Source: Octopus vulgaris (lineage: Eukaryota). From it: DNA of 64,000 nt. The notes under the pieces were generated by a model. That model saw only the letters and a list, made by a program, of their open reading frames with translations, ran no database searches and was not told the DNA's origin. A program made the position numbers and the translations under genes. How positions within the stretch are numbered: position 1 is the first letter of the stretch; the number at the start of each line of letters is the position of its first letter. This document shows positions 1 to 50,934 of the stretch, piece by piece. The stretch lies in contig OX597821.1 of NCBI GenBank assembly GCA_951406725.2, positions 14,508,001 to 14,572,000 on the forward strand, given 5' to 3'.

Positions 1-973
1 CCTCTTTGCGTATCTCCTCAAACACATGTTCTTTTTTCTGATGATATTTATGCTGACAACATGACTCTAAATAAAGTTCGTCTACACCCCAGTACTCCAA
101 GTCCTCACTGAATGCCAGCACACACATTTCCTCCACCAAGTGAAGTTTTCCAGTGCGGTAAAAGTTGAGGATGGAGGCAAACGATCGAGGATGTCGATCA
201 AAAAAGTATTCATTTTCGGCCAAGCTATAATCGTCACAAAGGTCAACAATTGCATCATGTGTATTACAGTCCCTCAGCTTACCAAGCCGAGTATGAGGCA
301 TGCGGTCAAGAGTGCGCCACAATACCTCATGTTTTACCCCACCCACATTTAGGATAACACGTTTAGAAACTTCCCTACTCCTCAAAATTGAAGCCGGATC
401 AGGAGGGCTTCCTATTGAGGATGTTGCATAGAAGGGTCGTTGCAGGGCCGACGACATGTCTCCTACTCCCACACCTACCACACTACCACTGCCAACACCA
501 CCACTGCCAACTCCTCTGCCACCTCCTTGAATAGGAAGGTTATTGTTGCCTGCAGGAATAAGACTACCTGGAGGTTGCACGACTGCTGGAGACGCTGCTA
601 GCTGTAAAGAACCACTAACACCACTCGTCACTACAGGATCAGCTATTTTCACTTCGGATCGACCTTGTTTAGCACGGAATGATCCTGATGTGGCTGTGGT
701 TGGATCTCCCGCAGTCGTACTAGTTGAAGACAATAATGGTGGAGGATGTTGGTGGTGATGATGATGATGTGAGTGGTGATGTGGAAAATGGTGATGGTGA
801 TCGGATGCCGCTGTGTTGGCCGATGATGTGGGGTCCCTTTTCCGAATTCCTATTGATGTGGGGTGTTGCTGTTGTTGGTGACGGAGCGAGGCGTTTCGAG
901 ATGCTGCCAAGGATGTGGCTGAAGGGAGGTCGCTCCGGCGATCTGAGCTGGCTCCAGAGCTGTGGTAAAACAT
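1..973 (-). CDS. Shab: Kv2 (Shab/KCNB) voltage-gated potassium channel, 5' coding exon (N-terminus + T1 tetramerisation domain); continues beyond position 1
   Basis: Manual translation of the minus strand (codons start at positions 1 mod 3) is open from 973 to 1: [38 protein letters not shown]...[22 protein letters not shown]...[154 protein letters not shown]. The last ~120 aa closely match the Shab/Kv2 T1 domain. The 5' boundary is uncertain: ATG at 973, splice acceptor ttttaccacag| before 959, or internal ATG at 457. Confidence 0.96.
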
Positions 974-1956
974 GGTTAGAAAAAAATGGTCAGGAGGGCA
1001 TAAACTTAAAAATATTTTAAGGTTAATTTATTATTTTAATTCTACCTAAATTAATTGATATACTTTTTTTTTGTTTTTCCATCAAAGATATTTAGCAGTT
1101 CATTTTAGCATTTTCATTTCATTCCTTCTTAAATTATAAAACTTTAAATTGTCCTCATTAAAATAATGTGTGTTAACCAAGTCGGAAAGCTTCAGTTGTA
1201 AAAAAATGAAATCTTTTATGAAGATCTTCTTCATCTTTGTTTCCTGATTTGAAACTGAGAACTTTACTAGAATTTACTTGAAAGGTTCATGAAATGATGT
1301 CATTTTGATAAATTTGATTAAAATGTTTGCTATTTCTTCACAACTCTTACCAAGTTGGCTCTTTTCAACAAGCATTTAGCTTTGATTAGAATTCAAAATT
1401 TGTGTTTTTTGTATTTATTGCCACATCATTAAGAATATTGAAGATATTGTATGAGTAATATCAGCAATAGAGCAGTACTACCACAATAAATATTGAATGC
1501 TGAACAACATCACACATTATTATATCATATCAAGTAAAATTTAAAAATATGATATGATAGTTGTATAAATAACAGTTTAATGGTGCCATAGAAATAAACA
1601 ATCATTTATAAATGACAAATCAATAAAATGTTTTATGATATAGTAATGAGTGATATTGAAGTACTTCATTTTCCGTAACTAATATATATTTATATAAATA
1701 TAAATCCTAGATATTTAGTAAGGCTGAAAATATTTTCTTGACAAACTTCTCCAGGTAATTTTGTTTATCTTAACTAGTTTATTTCCTGTAGTTAGGACAG
1801 AAGTAGCAGCTAAAATGGAGGGTAGAGTGAGGGTGAGGAGTTTTGGTATTTGCTAAAATCTACACTAAATGTGCAATAGTTGGAGGGTAAACTGAGGTTT
1901 TAGCAAGGATGAAGGCCAGGTACAAAAGCAGGGTGCGACAGCAGGAGTAAAGGTCA

Positions 1957-2072: not shown

Positions 2073-2500
2073 CTGCATACAAAAGACAAGGAGAACAAGT
2101 GTATAGTAATGAAAACAACATTTGCTTATACCAATCATTATTAGGATCTTTCTGGAGCAATCACAAGGTTGGTAGATGGAAGTAGATCATATGACTTATA
2201 AAAGTATAAAATATTATTCATTTCTTTGTAATTTTTTTCTTTTTTAATGCATGTAGCATTGATATCAATAAGGATTCTGTTAATGAATTAGTTATAGTAA
2301 TGATTTATATCATTGATACAAGGCCACAAATTTAAAATTAATTAGATTGACCTCACTCCACCAGTACATGACTGGTACGTAATCACTTCTCAATAGATAG
2401 AAGGTAGTCAGCTATGACAGGATTTTAAATATAAAATTAGAGCATGAAGATTTACATTATTTACATTCAACGGATATTTGTCCTCATCTTGTTTGTTGTT

Positions 2501-2546
2501 AACACAACGTTTCGGCTGATATACCCTCAAGCCTTCATCAGGTGTC
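2501..2546 (-). ncRNA. Minimal type I hammerhead ribozyme motif (best-preserved copy)
   Basis: GACAC-CUGAUGA-A-GGCU...AGCC-GAAAC-GUU-GUGUU: stem I GACAC/GUGUU, conserved core, stem II, palindromic ACGU stem III, GUU cleavage triplet. Confidence 0.7.
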
Positions 2547-2796
2547 TTGGGGAAATTTCAAACCTGGGTTCTCATTCCTAAGGTATTTTTCGATGTTGTT
2601 ATTATTATTATTATTATTGTTCAGGTCCCTGCATTGAATCAAACTCAGAATCTTGGGGTTAGTAGCCCACACTCTTAACTCCAAGATTCCAAACTCAATT
2701 CCAAGCAGTGACCTGAACAATAATAATAATAATAATAATAGCAACAACATCGAAAAATACCTTAGGAATGAGAACCCAGGTTCGAAATTTCCCCAA

Positions 2797-2842
2797 GACA
2801 CCTGATGAAGGCTGGAGAGTATATCAGCTGAAATGCTGTGTT
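2797..2842 (+). ncRNA. Hammerhead ribozyme motif, degenerate
   Basis: gacac-ctgatga-a-ggctg-gagagtatat-cagct-gaaa-tgct-gtgtt; stem III and cleavage triplet are altered. Confidence 0.5.
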
Positions 2843-3224
2843 ATCCACAAATAAGATGAGGACAGATATCTGTAGAATGTAAATAATGTAAATAATGCAC
2901 ATAATTCCTCATCTCTTAAATATAGAACTGTAGAGCATGAAGAGATGAAGCTAAAAACTACAAGGTTTGTAATCCAACATTTTGCTACCTTCTTAAATAA
3001 GGATTTCTTACATCGGTACATGGTTTAAATAGTGGAAGAGCTTAGTTGATTACATCAATTCATTTTGTTGGCCCCAGTGGGGATTAAACTCAAAGCAGAA
3101 GAGCAGCAAAAAAATTTTTAAAAACCAACAAAAAGAGGGAACAATTTTATATCTCACTCCCTTTAAAGCATATAAGTAAATCCTGAAATCTTTACAAATG
3201 CTAGGCATCACAGTTTCATGGCAA

Positions 3225-5465: not shown

Positions 5466-6610
5466 ACAAGGTGGAATTAAAAAGTTCCCAGACTAGTTCT
5501 ATAGTGCACCAACAGATGGCAGCACACAGTTGTGTATGCAGTGAGAGCTAGCAGTGATCTTCAAGATGTGTGCCAAAAGATATTGCTGTGTTTACTTTGC
5601 AGGTTGTGAAATTTGTGCTTTAATGATCATATGTATGCTGTAGTCTGTGATTTTGTCATGGATGGAAAGAAAGAGCTAACATGAAATTTCGCGATAAACT
5701 TGGAAAGTCTGCTACAGAGACAATGAGCAAGCTTTGGCAATGATGATGAAGCAATAGGTCATACACAATATTTCGAGTGGCATAGGCACTTCAAAAGTAG
5801 AAGAAAAGCCCTGGTAGGCGCAGGAGTGGCTGTGTGGTAAGTAGCTTACTTACCAACCACATGGTCCCGGGTTCAGTCCCACTGCGTGGCATCTTGGGCA
5901 AGTGTCTTCTGCTATAGCCCCGGGCCGACCAATGCCTTGTGAGTGGATTTGGTAGACGGAAACTGAAAGAAGCCTGTCATATATATGTATATATATATAA
6001 GTGTGTGTGTCTGTGTTTGTGTGTCTGTGTTTGTCCCCCTAGCATTGCTTGACAACCGATGCTGGTGTATTTACGTCCCGTCACTTAGCGGTTCAGCAAA
6101 AGAGACCGATAGAATAAGTACTGGACTTACAAAGAATAAGTCCCGGGGTCGATTTGCTCGACTAAAGGCGGTGCTCCAGCATGGCCGCAGTCAAGTGACT
6201 GAAACAAGTAAAGAGTAAAGGTGGTATTGTGCATTGAGAATTTGTAAACCAGGGCCAGACCATCAATCAAGAGTGACGTTTTGAAATATTTGAGGGAGAA
6301 CATTTGGTGTAAGTGACTGGGTCTGTGGAATGGGAAGAATTGGCTCATAAGTTTCTCACCAAAAACATGGTATCACTTCCAAACTCACCCTATTTGTCAG
6401 ATTTAATGCCTGTGGAATTCCATCTTTTCCATAATGAAAATGCAGCGTAAAGGTCACTGTTTTAACACCATAATTGAGATCAAAAGTGAACTGCAGAAGG
6501 TCCTCCACTCGCTTACAGAAAACAACTTCCCGGCAGAATTCCAAAAGTGGCAAGGATGCTGGGTCTGGTGTGCAGCTGTACAAGGTGACTATTTCAAAGG
6601 AGATGATGCT
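5466..6610 (+). mobile_element. Degenerate mariner (DD34D-type) transposon interrupted by a SINE A
   Basis: Fragments translate to KLGKSATET..FEWHRHFKS (HTH), GIVH*EFVNQGQTINQE, PYLSDL..F.LF..MKMQRKGHCF...GDYFKGD. Contains stops, frameshifts and deletions. Confidence 0.85.
5816..6220 (+). mobile_element. SINE family A
   Basis: Full-length copy nested in the mariner relic. Confidence 0.92.
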
Positions 6611-8247: not shown

Positions 8248-8666
8248 AGGCACAGGAGTGGCTGTGTGGTAAGTAGCTTGTTTACCAACCACATGGTTCC
8301 GGGTTCAGTCCCACTGCGTAGCACCTTGGGCAAGTGTCTTCTACTATAGCCTCGGGCCGACCAAAGCCTTGTGAGTGGATTTGGTAGACGGAAACTGAAA
8401 GAAGCCCGTCGTATATATGTATATATATATATGTGTGTGTGTGTGTGTTTGTGTGTCTGTGTTTGTTCCCTAGCATTGCTTGACAACCGATGCTGGTGTG
8501 TTTATGTCCCCGTTACTTAACGGTTCGGCAAAAGAGACCGATAGAATAAGTACTGGGCTTACAAAAAGAATAAGTCCCGGGGTTGAGTTGCTCGATTAAA
8601 GGCGGTGCTCCAGCATGGCCACAGTCAAATGACTGAAACAAGTAAAACGAGTAAAAAAATAGAGTA
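8248..8666 (+). mobile_element. SINE family A
   Basis: Full-length copy. Confidence 0.92.
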
Positions 8667-9879: not shown

Positions 9880-10033
9880 AGGAGTGGCTGTGTGGTAAGT
9901 AGCTTGCTTACCAACCACATGGTTCTGGGTTCAGTCCCACTGCGCGGCACCTTGGGCAAGTGTCTTCTACTATAGCCTCAGGCCAACCAAAGTCTTGAGA
10001 GTGAACTTGGTAGATGGGAACTGAAAGAAGCCC

Positions 10034-10095
<62 letters not shown>

Positions 10096-10304
10096 TATAT
10101 TTGTGTGTGTCTGTTAGTCCCCCTCCACCATTGCTTGACAACTGATGTTGGTGCATTTACGTCTTTGTAGCTTAGTGGTTCAGCAAAGGAGACCAATAAA
10201 ATAAATACTAGGCTTACAAAGAAGAAGTCTTGAGGTCGATTTGTTCGACTAAAGGTGGAGCTCCAGCATGGCCACAGTCAAATGACTGGAACAAGTAAAA
10301 GAGA
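9880..10304 (+). mobile_element. SINE family A with expanded (TA)n
   Basis: Slightly diverged copy. Confidence 0.9.
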
Positions 10305-10719
10305 ATATATATATATATATATATATATCTCATATGGTTTAATTTAAAATTTCTGGAGGAGGGATATTCATTTTCTTGGTGAATCAGGTAGTAGGGGAAA
10401 GTGTCATCCTAGAAATAGTATAGTATCATCATTATCTCTGAGTGCAGCAAAGTCAAAGGAAGATGCACAAGTGAGAAGAAACTACAAAGTTATCAATCTT
10501 TTGACTAAGAAATGAAAGCTATGTTAAGAAATGCAGTGCAACTGATTAAGAAGTGGATTAATCTAGATGAGATACAGTTCAGCTTTGTGCCATGAAAGAG
10601 TAGTACTAATACTAACTTCTTAGTAAGACGAATTCCATGCTCAGTAATTTGCTGGTAACCGAAGAAGCTAGGAGTAGATGAATGTTTTATGACAGATGTT
10701 AGTATTAGTACTACTTTTT

Positions 10720-11810: not shown

Positions 11811-12187
11811 GGATGGAAGCACTCCGTCGGTTACGACGATGAGGGTTCCGAATCAATGGAACAGCCTGCTCGTGAAATTAATGTGTAAGTGGCTGAGCAC
11901 TCCACAGACACGTGTACCCTTAACGTAGTTCTCGGGGATATTCAGCATGACACAGAGTGTGACAAGGCTGGCCCTTTGAAATACAGGTACAACAGAAACA
12001 GAAAGTAAGAGTGAGAGAAAGTTGTGGTGAAAGAGTACAGCAGGGTTCACCACCATCCCTGCCGGAGCCTCGTGGAGCTTTAGGTGTTTTCGCTCAATAA
12101 ACACTCACAACGCCTGGTCTGGGAATCAAAACCGCGATCCTATGACTGCGAGTCTGCTGCCCTAACCACTGGGCCATTGTGCCTCCA
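11811..12187 (-). mobile_element. SINE family C (tRNA-Arg-like head, anticodon TCG)
   Basis: Head gtggaggcacaatggcccagtggttagggcagc.gactcgc...gattcccagacc; ~14-bp TSD actaacttagaagt (11797-11810, 12187-12200). Confidence 0.9.
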
Positions 12188-16308: not shown

Positions 16309-16699
16309 GGATGATGGAAGCACTCCGTCGGTTACGACGACGAGGGTTCTGGTTGATCCGAATCAACGGAACAGCCTGCTCGTGAAATTAACGTGTAAGT
16401 GGCTGAGCACTCCACAGACATGTGTACCCTTAACGTAGTTCTCGGGGATATTCAGCGTGACACAGAGAGTCACAAGGCCGGCCCCTTGAAATACAGGTAC
16501 AACAGAAACAGGAAGTAAGAGCGAGAGAAAGTTGTGGTGAAAGAGTACAGCAGGGATCACCACCATCCCCTGCCGGAGCCTCGTGGAGCTTTAGGTGTTT
16601 TCGCTCAATAAACACTCACAACGCCTGTTCTGAGAATCGAAACCGCGATCCTATGACTGCGAGTCCACTGCCCTAACCACTGGGCCACTGCGCCTCCAC
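16309..16699 (-). mobile_element. SINE family C
   Basis: Full-length; 12-bp TSD tcattattatat (16297-16308, 16700-16711). Confidence 0.9.
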
Positions 16700-22905: not shown

Positions 22906-24616
22906 CTTCTTTAGAAATGGTGAAGTTGATAAAGCTACACATAATAGAATGGAAATATTGGGTTAAAAATTGCTCTGGACAGAAAAAGTCGAAGGTTCCC
23001 AGTGGAACTCGAACTCACACCTCCTGTGAATATAACTGGCATTCTGCCATTGAACTAAAACAATTCTCTGAGTTTCTCAATCTATTTTAGAAACTTCATT
23101 CTTACCAGCAAGAATTGTATGCTGTTGACATCATAAGAATTTATAAACCTTGAGGTAATGTGAAATAATAAATTTCTTTTGGAATGGTGCAGCTCAAAGT
23201 GTTGCTTCATTCTTATGATGTTAACGACAAATGTATGTTTCACTTTTTTCATTTATTATTATTTTAACTTTGTACCATAGAATTTTGATGTTGCTCATCC
23301 CCAAAATAGATATCAACAAGCTTTCATTGGAACATCTGAAAGGAAATGTATATATGTAGGTAGGTTGTATCTACCTACTCTCGTATGCATGTACGTATAA
23401 ATACATGTATATAAATGATATGTAGTTCTGAGTCTTCTAACATAAGAAAAAAATTTGGAGCGGTATTCTTTTTGTTTAAATACAAAAATGAAAAGTGGAA
23501 GAAAGTTAATATATACTGTATAATATTCCTAAATCATTCATATCTGATACAGAAATATACACACAAGGATATAGTACAGAGCCAGCCTTTTACAAAAGAG
23601 AACATATGAAAAGAAAGAAATTAAAAAAAAAAATAAATGAAGAAAAAGGAAATATAGAAATCACAATGTAGCAAATATAAAGGAAATTATGCTAAAGTTA
23701 TATCACAGTTAATTATTTTTAGTATACAACTTTTAATTACATCAAAAGAATTAATTTATTAATATTTATTAATATAAATTTACAAACTTTTCAAGATTAA
23801 TATGCTGGCTCTTTTAAATAATTATTATTACTATAGTTTAGATTTGTTTTTATTAAAGAGTTTTTAGATACAATTTCTTTTTAAAGAAAGATGAAAGAAT
23901 GGAATTATCACAAAATTCAAATTTATAAAAATCTTTTTTTACATTTTTTTTTTTGTTCCTTTCAAAATTATTCAAGATTTGTTGATTTCATTCAATGTGA
24001 TATTCTGAAACTCTGTTCAAATCTAATTGTTGATGTGGTATTATTTCAAAAAATATTATGTAAAATTGACAAGTGAGGTGATAACAACATGATTTTTGTG
24101 TTAAATTAGCATTTGGCAAATATTGCAACTGCTTTTGTTCCATCTCAGTATATCTTTATGTGTGTAATCTAAGAGTTCCCAAGTCCAATTCTATTGCATA
24201 ACATCTTGGACAAATAACCTTTTTTAAAGCTTTTAGGTATGCCAATACCTTCTGAATGGTAGATAGAAATTATGTAGAAGCCCATCAAATGAATTATCTA
24301 TAATTCAAAGGTTACACACTGTATTATACTAAATCTACCTGAGAGTTACATTAAGGGGACATGTGTTTGTGGAGTACTCAGCCATTTATAAGCTAAATCA
24401 AAGAGGAGGTAATTCAGTTAACCTAATTCTCATTCAAGACCTACATCAAACAGAACTGCAATCCCTCTGACCTGCTGAATATGATAAACAATAGAACTGG
24501 CTGGTGACAGAGAGTCACAGGCATCCTTACAAGCAGTGCGACCAAATGATGTTTATCATAATCTTCGTTGTAGAAACCAACAAAGTTCCATCCATATAGA
24601 ATACATTATTGTATTA

Positions 24617-25000
24617 TGGCGCAATGGCCCAGTGGTTAGAGCAGCGGACTCGCGGTCATAGGATCGCGGTTTCGATTCCCAGACCGGGTGTTGTGAGTGT
24701 TTATTGAGCGAAAACACCTAAAAGCTCCACGAGGCTCCGGCAGGGGATGGTGGTGATCCCTGCTGTACTCTTTAACCACAACTTTCTCTCACTCTTACTT
24801 CCTGTTTCTGTTGTACCTGTATTTCAAGGGGCCGGCCTTGTCATTCACCGTGTCACGCTGAATATCCCCAAGAACTACGTTAAGGGTGCACGTTTCTGTG
24901 GAGTGCTCAGCCACTTACACGTTAATTTCACGAGCAGACTGTTCCGTTGATTCGGATCAACTGGAACCCTCGTAGTCGTAACCGACGGAGTGCTTCCATC
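24617..25000 (+). mobile_element. SINE family C
   Basis: tRNA-like head with A box tggcccagtgg, anticodon loop ctcgcgg and B box ggtttcgattccc; TSD cattattgtatt (24604-24615, 25001-25012). Confidence 0.92.
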
Positions 25001-37313: not shown

Positions 37314-38764
37314 ATGCATACATACATGTATATATTGTGAAGATCAAGTTGACTTGGATTTCAAGATTTCTCCTTTAGTTTATTCAGTCTGATTGAACAA
37401 ACTATAAGGCGAAACTTGAAGTCCCTGTCAACTTGAAACTTAATATAAATTTGACTCTGCTTTAAGAGTCACACAATCAATAAATGTCCTGTTGTTCTTA
37501 AACTTGCACACATATATGTGTGTGTGTGTACAAAACTATGTAATCATTTCTTCTTTGTTTTGATTTTATCAATTTTATATATGTTCTCTTAAATTGCTAC
37601 TTTTGAAAATTCAATTGAATTAAATATATTATCTCTTTTCGCAGAGCTGCCAAATTAAGCAGATATTTTATGTGATAAGAATTAAAATTTGTAAATAAAT
37701 AATTGACATTTAAAAACTCAAAATAAAAACAATACAAAAAAAGAAAACTGCTAATAATAATGAGATTTTTTTTTAATTTATGAAATGTTTGGCAAGTAAA
37801 ATGAGGTGTCTTATCTATGGACATGATGAATGAATTGACAATGTGAAATGAGCTTATGAAAATAGGGACAAAAGAATCTTGACATTTTCACTTGATGATT
37901 GTTTTTCACAATAATGAAGATGATAATATAAATGATTGAAATAAGTAATGTAATCTTAAATAATGAGTATATGAAAGCTTGATAACGAACAGATGAATTT
38001 GATTAGAAAGTGAAGTAATGAAGATGATTACTGATACTTCATGTTAGGGTAAGGTAGATGAGATATGATATGTTGAAAGATTAGTAATGACTGAATGATA
38101 AGTTCTAAGTATTTAATGATAATGGTGTTGAAAATATGATTGGTAGAAAACGAAAGGAAAGAAAGTCTTCTGTTTGTTTTCATGTATTGCTTGATAAAAT
38201 TTTGTTATTTAGGATACCATTATCTGAGTAAAACAGGAAGCTTAATTTGGGAGCTAATTATTATATTTCAAAAGGAAAAAATTAGTTCTTCACAAATTTC
38301 CTTCCTTTTCATTTTTAATACGAAAATTATTCTTTCTTTTTCTTGGAAATATTAATTGAATTTTTCTTCTTAATTAGTTGAAGATTGTAAAAAAAAAAAA
38401 AAAAGAAAAAGAGCTACATTCATTTTTATGTTTTGTGTATTTCCCAATATGCTTGTATCAAAATATATGCAGCTGGCCATTTTGAAAATAATACAAAATT
38501 TTAAATAAATAAATCATGTTTAAAGAAATAAACCATCAAAATCTCTGAGAAACCCTATCTTCATAATATGAATTTCTCTTTAAATTCATATTTATTCTTA
38601 TCATATATTTCTTCTGACAATTACTACTGTTTACGTCAGTTTTTTTTTTTTATCACTATTAGAATGGTGGCCTGCATAACATTATTGAAATTCTGCTGAC
38701 CTAGTCTGTCAACACAATACAGACTTCAAAAAAAAAAAAAGAAAAAGGGTATATGTATATACAT

Positions 38765-39250
38765 ACAGTTCTATATTTAAGAGATGAGGAATTATGTACA
38801 TTATTTATATTTGATTGATATTTGTCCTCATTTTGTTTGTTGATAACACAGCATTTCAGCTGATATACCCTCCAGCCTTCATCAGGTGTCTTGGGGAAAT
38901 TTTGAACCTGGGTTCACATTCCTAAGGTATTTTTTGATGTTGTTATTATTATTTCTAAGGTCACTGCCTGGAATTGAACTTGGAATCTTGGAGTTAGTAG
39001 TCCGGGCTCTTAACCACTGCGCCATATGCCCACGGACATATGGTGTAGTGGTTAAGAGCCTAGGCTACTAATCCCAAGATTCCAAGTTTGATTCCAGGCA
39101 GTGACCTTAGAAATAATAACAACATCTGAGAACCCAGGTTCAAAATTTCCCCAAGACACCTGATGAAAGCTAGAGGGTATATCAGCTGAAACGTGTTAAC
39201 AACAAACAAGATGGGGACAAATATCCGTCGAATATAAATAATGTAAATAA
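38765..39250. mobile_element. Palindromic tRNA-headed, hammerhead-containing element (family E), copy 2
   Basis: Head-to-head arms with a 2-nt spacer (39032-39033); 73-nt tRNA-like heads at 38959-39031 (minus) and 39034-39106 (plus); hammerhead motifs at 38845-38890 (minus) and 39155-39197 (plus). Confidence 0.85.
38959..39031 (-). pseudogene. tRNA-like SINE head (A box TGGCGCAGTGG, B box AGTTCAATTCC, loop CT-ACT-AA); not a functional tRNA
   Basis: 73 nt, cloverleaf-like but with acceptor, D and T-stem mismatches; embedded in repeat E. Confidence 0.7.
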
Positions 39251-39279
39251 TGTATATATATATATATATATATATATAA

Positions 39280-39480
39280 AGTTAATCCAAACAAGAAAAC
39301 ACAAAAAAACACAACAACGTGAGGATGTGGAACAAATACAGTACTATTGGACGCTCAGGAAAGAAGGGAAAATGTTTCGAGTGGAGCTCTTCGTCGGAAA
39401 CATAGGAGAAGGAAAGATCCCAAGAAGGGAAGACAGATGAAAAAAAATCGCCAACGGTACACATGAGGTCACATTTTGAA
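39280..39480 (-). mobile_element. Penelope-like pLTR remnant with a variant hammerhead core
   Basis: Minus strand 39371-39400 reads gtttCCGACGAaGAGctccaCTCGAAACa. Confidence 0.5.
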
Positions 39481-39815
39481 AGACCAGAAGTCGAAAGGGT
39501 GAAGAAGGTTGTTTTCAAAGACAGAAGAGTTCTCAAAGACAGTATGGTAGTATGTCAAAGACGAGGAATGTGGGAGGGGGAATGTGTGTGGATGTGTGCA
39601 TGCATGGAGGTCTGCGTGTGAGTGTGTATGTGTGTGTGTGTGTGTATGCATGTGTGTGTATGTGTGTATGGTTCTGGCTGCAAACAACAGGCTAGTGGCT
39701 GGCCAGTTTGTAAGAATAAGGAGTGGTGTTTTTTGTTTCCCAGCCACAGGTCAGAACAAAGAAGTATGTGTGTGTGTGTGTGTGCGTGTATGTATATGTA
39801 TCGTGTGTGTGTTTT

Positions 39816-40269: not shown

Positions 40270-40607
40270 AATAAAGACTCTCTTTGGTCATCTATGACCA
40301 TGGGATTACACCTAAAAATTTCCCTCCTGAGGCTTAAGTCTGAGCAAGGTTTTTCATGGAAGACCAGCAGTTTCCTGTGCATACCAGCCTCCCCTCTCCA
40401 TGCCATTGATGGTATCCAAAGGAAAGGCAGAAGCCAATACAGTTTAGCACCAGTGATGTCACATTTCATTTCTAAGCGGAGGGAACTAGAGCAATGTGAA
40501 ATAAAGTGACTTGCTCAAGAACACAACACACAGCCTGTCCGGGAATCAAACTCACTACCTCGTGATTGTGAACCTGATGCTCTAACCATTGAGCCATGCA
40601 CCTTCAC
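40270..40607 (-). mobile_element. Older tRNA-derived SINE (family F; tRNA head + cttgagcaag..acttt core)
   Basis: Minus strand gtgaaggtgcatggctcaatggttagagcatc...gagtttgattccc...gttcttgagcaagtcacttt; similar decayed pieces near 52040-52165, 57190-57305 and 62400-62530. Confidence 0.7.
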
Positions 40608-50520: not shown

Positions 50521-50934
50521 GGCACAGGAGTGGCTGTGTGTTAAGTAGCTTGCTTACCAACCACATGGTTCTGGGTTCAGTCCCACTGCGTGGCATCTTG
50601 GGCAAGTGTCTTCTGCTATAGCCCCGGGCCAACCAATGCCTTGTGAGTGGATTTGGTAGACAGAAACTGAAAGAAGCTTGTCGTATATATGTATAAATAT
50701 ATGTGTGTGTGTATTTGTGTGTCTGTGTTTGTCCCCCTGTGTTTGTCCCCCTTGACAACCGATGCTGGTGTGTTTATGTCCCCGTAACTTAGCAGTTCGG
50801 CAAAAGAGTACGATAGAATAAGTACTGGGCTTACAAAAAGAATAAGTCCTGGAGTCGAGTTGCTCGATTAAAGGCAGTGCTCCAGCATGGCCGCAGTCAA
50901 ATGACTGAAGCAAGTAAAAGAGTAAAAGAGAGAG
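50521..50934 (+). mobile_element. SINE family A
   Basis: Full-length copy, followed by an older related tail (50950-51205). Confidence 0.9.

Follow-up and report, generated by a model that had tools for sequence, protein, structure and literature searches.

The window, by which we mean the whole stretch of 64,000 nucleotides analysed here, contains at 38764-39251 a palindrome whose inverted arms, 38791-39031 (minus strand) and 39034-39251 (plus strand), align with 198 matches, 20 mismatches and 23 gap columns, the left arm running 27 nt further than the right (to 38764). An earlier note on this DNA had placed the palindrome at 38765..39250, and the arm alignment confirms that it is real. That note had also expected a hairpin of >200 bp upon read-through, and the predicted fold is indeed one hairpin of 214 pairs (-329 kcal/mol). 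The left, full-tailed arm (38764..39031, minus strand; 85% identity to the family reference) corresponds to the 3′ end of a Penelope-like element (PLE), running from +1, the first base of a tRNA-like head, through the whole tail. It includes a Penelope 'tail' of ~30 nt (38764..38796, minus strand), which the arm comparison places only on this arm, a minimal type I hammerhead (38845..38890, minus strand) and the left tRNA-like head (38959..39031, minus strand), whose A box (39014-39024) and B box (38970-38979) both match the consensus. The right, short-ended arm (39034..39251, plus strand) has no tail and carries a private 17-nt internal deletion. Its tRNA-like head (39034..39106, plus strand) has an A box at 39041-39051 with one CpG change and a B box at 39086-39095 with a C56>T change, likely inactive, and its minimal type I hammerhead (39155..39197, plus strand) bears a recurrent 3-nt deletion at the predicted cut. 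The two heads, 73 nt each, and the 2-nt spacer between them lie exactly where they had first been described; the spacer (39032-39033) corresponds to the bases that immediately precede the head in the native element and belongs to a self-complementary leader or junction (39026..39038, no strand assigned). A T run starts at 38746, just beyond the left-arm tail. Target-site duplications of 13 bp were found on the left (38749..38761, plus strand; TA-rich, one mismatch with the right copy) and on the right (39252..39264, plus strand). This duplication is weak alone because it sits in a TA tract, yet it matches the 11-16 bp duplications of sister palindromes.

The two heads had been proposed as complete promoters, each with A/B-box-like motifs and each followed by a hammerhead. 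The left boxes do fit the consensus, but the right B box has lost C56, which is invariant in 14 tRNAs of the genome, so that the locus does not hold two complete promoters. A hammerhead motif does lie ~90 nt after each head, but both copies are damaged: the left one has lost its palindromic stem III and its GUH triplet, likely leaving it inactive, and in the right one the 3-nt deletion lies over the cut site. As for outward Pol III firing, the heads resemble Pol III promoters, but with the right B box lacking C56 and both hammerheads damaged, firing in both directions with ribozyme-trimmed products is unlikely today. The focal copy is, judging from its sequence, probably a relic and mostly dead, in which at most the left head could still fire. 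A second insertion of the same family (2450..2932, no strand assigned) is also a palindrome with a 13-bp duplication at either side, but both of its heads are 5′-truncated and begin at +18 and +36, hence both A boxes are missing; the idea of one architecture repeated at two loci 36 kb apart does not survive this comparison.

Positions within the element are counted from the first G of the head (+1) on a script-built reference carrying a long AAT tract. In the family consensus the A box is at +8 and the B box at +53, with tRNA spacing, and both boxes are intact (the box consensus being in part that of PMC10886601). A tRNA covariance model, built from 14 tRNAs of the same genome, scored the focal heads at 14.3 bits (E 0.017) and 11.6 bits (E 0.15) and the heads of sister copies at up to 25.4 bits, with a match across the full length of the model. 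The closest tRNAs to the head were those for Arg (~49/75 identity among only 10 tRNAs compared), a weak lean that is not decisive. ARAGORN and Rfam gave no tRNA match in the window; Rfam, used with gathering thresholds and, on 8 loci, with E-values, returned no tRNA or hammerhead, and only microsatellite miRNA models matched. We rejected the head as a tRNA gene on the basis of the negative ARAGORN and Rfam results and of a predicted fold with no clean cloverleaf. Five other tRNA-like heads in the window (40532-40599, 16626-16688, 22994-23061, 12105-12181 and 24620-24696) outscore the focal ones, with 15.8-26.2 bits, and are probably ordinary tRNA-derived SINEs.

The window also contains ~20 copies, in both orientations, of a SINE-like family of ~430 nt with an internal CA/TA microsatellite (e.g. 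5822-6225, 8254-8659, 9880-10312 and 50526-50931), and an open frame of 342 aa (2-1027, minus strand) that contains tracts of His and of Gln, runs off the window start and is likely a host-gene exon. A second high-copy repeat (39287-39520, minus strand) adjoins the palindrome and has a hammerhead-like motif with a variant core. It is deep in runs X16 and X18 and nearly absent in X19 and X20, and is likely the pLTR of another, lineage-restricted Penelope-like family. Elsewhere, at locus L048, a cluster within 3 kb comprises tRNA calls for Cys (six, one of them with anticodon ACA) and for Ser(ACT) (one).

The element from which the palindrome derives is ~2.7 kb long, with an RT, a GIY-YIG-type end, a minimal hammerhead and a 30-nt tail. 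Long copies have the order RT, GIY-YIG-type end, stop, 29 nt, tRNA-like head, AAT tract, ORF start, hammerhead and tail: precisely, the head sits 29 nt past the stop of one ORF and before the start of the next, and the hammerhead is located inside the first codons of the ORF, 23 codons in. A partial tandem (L111) has the pLTR followed by the ORF start. The script consensus of 30 long copies has one open frame of ~837 codons. Pfam RVT_1 matches were obtained in natural copies, among them L007, with a 264-aa RT frame upstream of the head; the end of L248 aligned with the Pfam GIY-YIG stretch of protein P0022 (37%, E 3e-34), although Pfam itself gave no match on the L248 piece. Homologues (32-71%) have RT and GIY-YIG, and one of them, P0005, has the hammerhead-encoded peptide stretch in common with the focal family. 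By its domain layout, on which the clade call is made, the family is an EN+ PLE of the Penelope/Poseidon type, and the palindrome represents one insertion event, in which the 3′ end (pLTR) of such a retrotransposon has an inverted partner. The focal family has no CxxC linker, unlike the young Neptune-type Penelope family of the same genome (L104 141-1196; L263-L287; 3,559 candidates, copies 96-98% alike), which served as control and has the CxxC linker, its ORF being followed by a long TA tract. At L103/L104 (G000:C11:56264014-56269004) we observed that >900 bp of the coding region of the focal element are duplicated in inverted orientation at 99% identity, a divergence well below that of other arm pairs; this may be a recent conversion, a recent duplication or an assembly artefact.

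Exact pattern matches in the 2.8-Gb genome numbered 2,724 for a 25-nt stretch of the head and 4,605 for a 29-nt stretch of the hammerhead; since the exact-match share of arms was 11/54 and 17/88, rough scaling gives ~13,000 heads and ~24,000 hammerhead-bearing arms. Hammerhead or tail sequence was present in 66/70 head-anchored loci. A tRNA-derived SINE separate from the partner element was rejected, in view of this linkage of 66/70 heads to the PLE end and of 267 exact native junctions, and a non-LTR retrozyme was rejected because copies are head-to-head or solo, with no head-to-tail tandem units. Among the 55 relatives and 5 control loci scanned, a tRNA-like head between stop and hammerhead (pLTR) was absent; tRNA-like matches near relatives L300, L321, L322 and L341 were discarded as lying in the flanks, outside the pLTR, and L343 was judged by coordinates only. 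The AAT tract behind the head reaches hundreds of bases in L188, L200, L095, L096 and others, and with such expansions in some copies the family seeds trinucleotide microsatellites.

Target duplications, mostly of 11-16 bp, were found round 38/48 simple palindromes (about four of the 48 being the same insertion counted twice) and round 37/300 shuffled, i.e. mismatched, flanks. The suggestion of a SINE-like dimer at the focal locus therefore gives way to one Penelope-like insertion with a single target duplication round the whole palindrome. One tailed and one short arm were present in 95/122 head-to-head pairs, a set that includes score- and junction-selected loci. Derived bases common to both arms were 80, versus 25 at random, and the source variant at +169 was concordant between arms (12/4/4/62, P 3e-8); since partner arms share source variants, they derive from one source element. 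At the focal locus the tailed arm is longer than the short arm and does not have its two deletions, hence it was not copied from the short arm, and plain snap-back copying of one cDNA was rejected as the whole explanation there. Other copies do contain true fold-backs, which are short (10-25 nt). The arms thus speak for two cDNAs of a single source that became joined through microhomology, and against plain self-copying. Decay of the focal arms, ~4% from consensus at non-CpG sites, is like that of other copies. No empty pre-insertion site was found in contigs of four other organisms, where the sole left-edge contig was too short inside to count.

The head-to-head dimer had been regarded as the normal integrated form. 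Inverted copies are in fact frequent (59/90 hammerhead-anchored loci, a figure biased upward because palindromes are sampled through either arm), but two complete heads occur in only 11/90. RNAs ending at the ribozyme, also proposed earlier, do not agree with the arm 3′ ends, which cluster at ~+250-259 and +284-286, so that the templates extended 55-85 nt beyond it. In the accessible text of PMC8557442, Penelope elements as a rule have inverted partners at the 5′ end and, at one end, a tail of 30-40 nt, and in that of PMC11167929 the tail lies between two RT start sites; two priming sites with tailed and short ends accord with what both these texts describe. Opposite-strand minimal hammerheads 100-700 bp apart were noted earlier, in the available part of PMC4209133. 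We consider it practically certain that the palindrome is real, explained and ordinary for a Penelope element.

The position at which copies stop was analysed on two sets of loci. In the first 70 exact heads along C1, native upstream sequence was 0-7 nt long in 56 and ≥45 nt in 14, with none between; ends inside the head are excluded from this set by the search pattern, and a few rows resemble segmental duplicates. The second set consisted of 90 loci chosen by hammerhead alone (the first 100 listed matches minus four, with neighbours merged). Here 14 turn points were upstream of -8, 32 at -7..+1, 13 at +2..+17 and 31 at +44..+148, about seven of these last being breaks at long AAT tracts; the upstream ORF end was not reached in 76/90 loci. 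Expressed as ends per nt at risk, this corresponds to 0.12 at -7..+1, 0.015 at +2..+17 and 0.003-0.004 either side, i.e. a pile-up of copy 5′ ends at the head edge of ~35-fold background. Many ends are exactly at +1 or -1..-6 and are joined to unrelated positions without use of a hairpin. Five of the 64 tail-ORF junction pieces reach the head, and 4/5 stop at -8..+1. The head, its native upstream sequence and junctions falling within the same few bases also turned up in contigs of four other organisms.

The leader and the start of the head are self-complementary, the 2-nt spacer forming the loop, and the predicted fold of the native leader is a 9-pair hairpin (-9.6 kcal/mol). Over the whole genome, exact short fold-backs numbered 222 and native read-throughs 267, and the longer upstream hairpin accounted for 0 fold-backs; given 222 short versus 0 longer, an RNA starting ~6 nt before the head fits better than a stall in a longer RNA. 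Against the head as the sole start, 14/90 copies extend into the upstream ORF, hence longer RNAs are used too, and the raised ends at +2..+17 (13/90) could also reflect an RT that stalls at a structured head.

The hammerhead of the family reference has the conserved core, an extra base between 9 and 10.1, G10.1-C11.1, a long stem II, a short stem I and a palindromic stem III, so that all the features listed in PMC4209133 are present. Accessible parts of that paper give no evidence of in vivo cleavage for minimal hammerheads, and those of PMC11167929 report for Anolis Poseidon that cleavage is not needed in vitro and that RNA ends were not found at the cut. A loss of 3 nt at the predicted cut was found in 52/315 arms (~17%; 43 plus 9 aligned one base left); the corresponding figures were 0-4 of 170-327 for seven other 3-nt sites sharing the 2-nt microhomology and 12/320 for a 5-nt one. 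Its frequency was equal in tailed (26/136) and short arms (27/141) and flat over divergence thirds (16/94, 14/95 and 22/95), and the deletion was not common to partner arms (3/11/12/61, P 0.70), hence it arises independently per arm. We rejected it as a subfamily mark, as it had no linkage to source variants and a signal at +197 was an alignment effect. Junction pieces started at +202..+207 in 7/64 cases (1.7 expected), and in a larger set there were 8 such starts, only mildly raised; a short, 6-nt palindrome there is an alternative cause. On these counts, it is an even call whether the 3-nt deletion is the scar of hammerhead cleavage, with the RT crossing the cut template by a 2-nt jump; RT skipping of a folded structure, or later slippage, may also be its cause.

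In Metazoa, a run of at least four T is a stop signal for Pol III. The sense strand of the family consensus has 0 TTTT in 2,656-2,667 nt, where 5.5 are expected under codon resampling (P 0.002) and 2.95 under a codon-preserving shuffle (P 0.026); a base shuffle gave P 0.006 and a Markov-1 model P 0.066. The deficit is thus modest under the conservative nulls, i.e. codon-preserving shuffle and Markov-1, which counts against a Pol III reading. AAAA is also low under codon resampling (P 0.0013) and CCCC is not low. Decayed copies contain 0.50 TTTT per kb (100 in 199.5 kb) versus 3.3 CCCC per kb. The Neptune-type family of the same genome has 10 TTTT in 2,358 nt, and 33 relatives, namely those with an open stretch of ≥400 aa among 80 related PLE loci from metagenome contigs, have 350 TTTT in 64.9 kb (5.4 per kb), each with ≥3 and the lowest at 1.6 per kb.

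Since most copies begin at the tRNA-like segment, Pol III transcription of the family is likely. We consider it probable, from the features described above, that the head is an internal Pol III promoter and that the start of its RNA set where copies end and turn back; our confidence is the same or slightly greater that the head would serve as the Pol III start for a short template. Pol III would start ~6 nt upstream of the head, or the RNA would be trimmed to +1, and the RT would prime twice on RNA from one source element, with each chromosome end serving one of the two Penelope start sites. Each cDNA would run to or toward the RNA 5′ end, and the two would be joined at their far ends by microhomology, here via the self-complementary leader, giving the 2-nt spacer. 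A weaker part of the scheme is that the same promoter would drive the coding unit, free of any TTTT terminator, over its full 2.7 kb, and that the hammerhead would have cut some templates, on which the RT crossed the break, losing 3 nt. Taken as a whole, the reading in which a captured tRNA-derived promoter made the entire 2.7 kb coding PLE a Pol III unit with TTTT purged from its ORF, in which most of the ~ten thousand copies go back to a short RNA made from the same promoter, and in which the 3-nt deletion records in vivo cleavage, is put forward tentatively, as somewhat less than an even prospect. PMC10886601, in its accessible part, argues against such a reading that the processivity of Pol III is too weak to serve autonomous elements. 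Three raw RNA runs (from a related organism and one study) and one contig set were compared with a full-length copy; orientations were about equal, depth tracked copy number and no start or end pile-ups were seen, and libraries of this kind are unable to show Pol III use or editing.

Alternatively, Pol III might make only a short (~290-nt) SINE-like pLTR RNA, mobilised in trans, while Pol II makes the coding mRNA, the lack of TTTT being incidental and RNase P-like trimming at +1 possibly adding to the boundary. This division of labour, to which we assign a lesser though still appreciable chance, avoids the translation problem, suits the many loci that never reach the upstream ORF end (76/90) and fits the SINE/TRIMp3 pattern described in the accessible part of PMC10886601; but 4/5 head-to-ORF pieces share the boundary, TTTT stays at 0.50 per kb even in decayed copies versus 5.4 per kb in relatives, and in a tandem copy without a terminator after the tail Pol III would continue through the TTTT-free ORF. 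An ordinary Pol II Penelope, in which a passenger tRNA-derived insert (an old SINE or tRNA pseudogene with an AAT tail) sits in the pLTR and the leader hairpin and structured head stall the RT or snap back, would give a junction hot spot without any Pol III start. The hairpin of the native leader, the raised truncation at +2..+17, the resemblance of the head plus AAT to a tailed retropseudogene and a TTTT deficit of only P 0.026-0.066 under the strict nulls all suit it. We nevertheless find it improbable, because the longer, stronger hairpin yields none of the fold-backs, many ends at +1 or -1..-6 join unrelated positions with no hairpin, the consensus A and B boxes are intact and none of the relatives is TTTT-free.

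A dimer of two SINE-like units, acting as a bidirectional Pol III gene with ribozyme-trimmed RNAs or as a selected ADAR/Dicer hairpin, seems to us very improbable. Perfect fold-back junctions are frequent (the 222 exact ones) and a long hairpin would form, but the single duplication encloses the whole palindrome, junctions are mostly asymmetric, with two complete heads so rarely present, the right B box and both ribozymes are mutated at the focal locus, and the arms decay like other copies.

Pol III is not expected to drive a protein-coding retrotransposon. If the reading of the family as a Pol III-run coding retrotransposon is true, it breaks the usual split between autonomous elements, which use Pol II, and SINEs and TRIMs, which use Pol III, and it poses a concrete problem of cap-independent translation, with an uncapped RNA and, at 23 codons from the ORF start, a ribozyme. 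Self-cleavage is reported to be able to initiate cap-independent translation in fungal and plant systems (PMC13725137, accessible part), a route that may also be open to the focal family. The formation of Penelope inverted ends is called undefined in the accessible text of PMC8557442; since the RNA 5′ end looks fixed here, the family exposes how such ends form. The cut-site deletion, in turn, offers a countable genomic readout of whether Penelope minimal hammerheads cleave in vivo.

The new part is the tRNA-like head in a coding Penelope family, the palindrome alone being a known Penelope by-product. We found no PLE with a tRNA-derived Pol III head in listings and abstract openings of the openly accessible literature, nor a comparable element in the accessible parts of PMC8490949, PMC7229834, PMC13282606 and bioRxiv 10.64898/2026.07.22.740005; the family may be in some repeat library as an unclassified SINE or Penelope. 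With Penelope/Poseidon PLEs, as described in the accessible parts of PMC8557442, PMC11167929 and PMC4209133, it shares the single ORF with RT and C-terminal GIY-YIG-type domain, the DKG and CCHH-type residues, the absence of a CxxC linker, a minimal hammerhead in the pLTR overlapping the ORF start, an inverted 5′-truncated partner and a 30-40 nt tail on one end; it differs from them in the A/B-box tRNA-like head in the pLTR, the sharp 5′ boundary there and the TTTT-free sense strand. The TRIMp3 elements (Cassandra, Helenus and Ajax) also have a small-RNA-derived Pol III promoter in a terminal repeat, thought to come from a SINE insertion, but they are short non-coding LTR elements, whereas the focal host element is an autonomous coding PLE; non-coding TRIMs with promoters that come from tRNA or 5S RNA are described in the accessible part of PMC10886601, according to which Pol II must serve their autonomous partners. 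Like tRNA-derived SINEs (SINE2), the focal sequence has a tRNA-like head, a defined 5′ end, a LINE-like 3′ end and thousands of copies, but it is colinear with an autonomous PLE and joined to its ORF, with no separate SINE consensus. The SM-alpha repeat of Schistosoma reportedly has a tRNA-type promoter. Together with animal non-LTR retrozymes it resembles the focal copies as a short hammerhead-bearing repeat tied to PLEs, SM-alpha being called SINE-like (PMC8490949, PMC7229834 and bioRxiv 10.64898/2026.07.22.740005, in their accessible parts); retrozymes, however, are head-to-tail, non-coding and have canonical hammerheads, whereas the focal short copies are head-to-head pieces of a coding element, with the head in the autonomous element itself.
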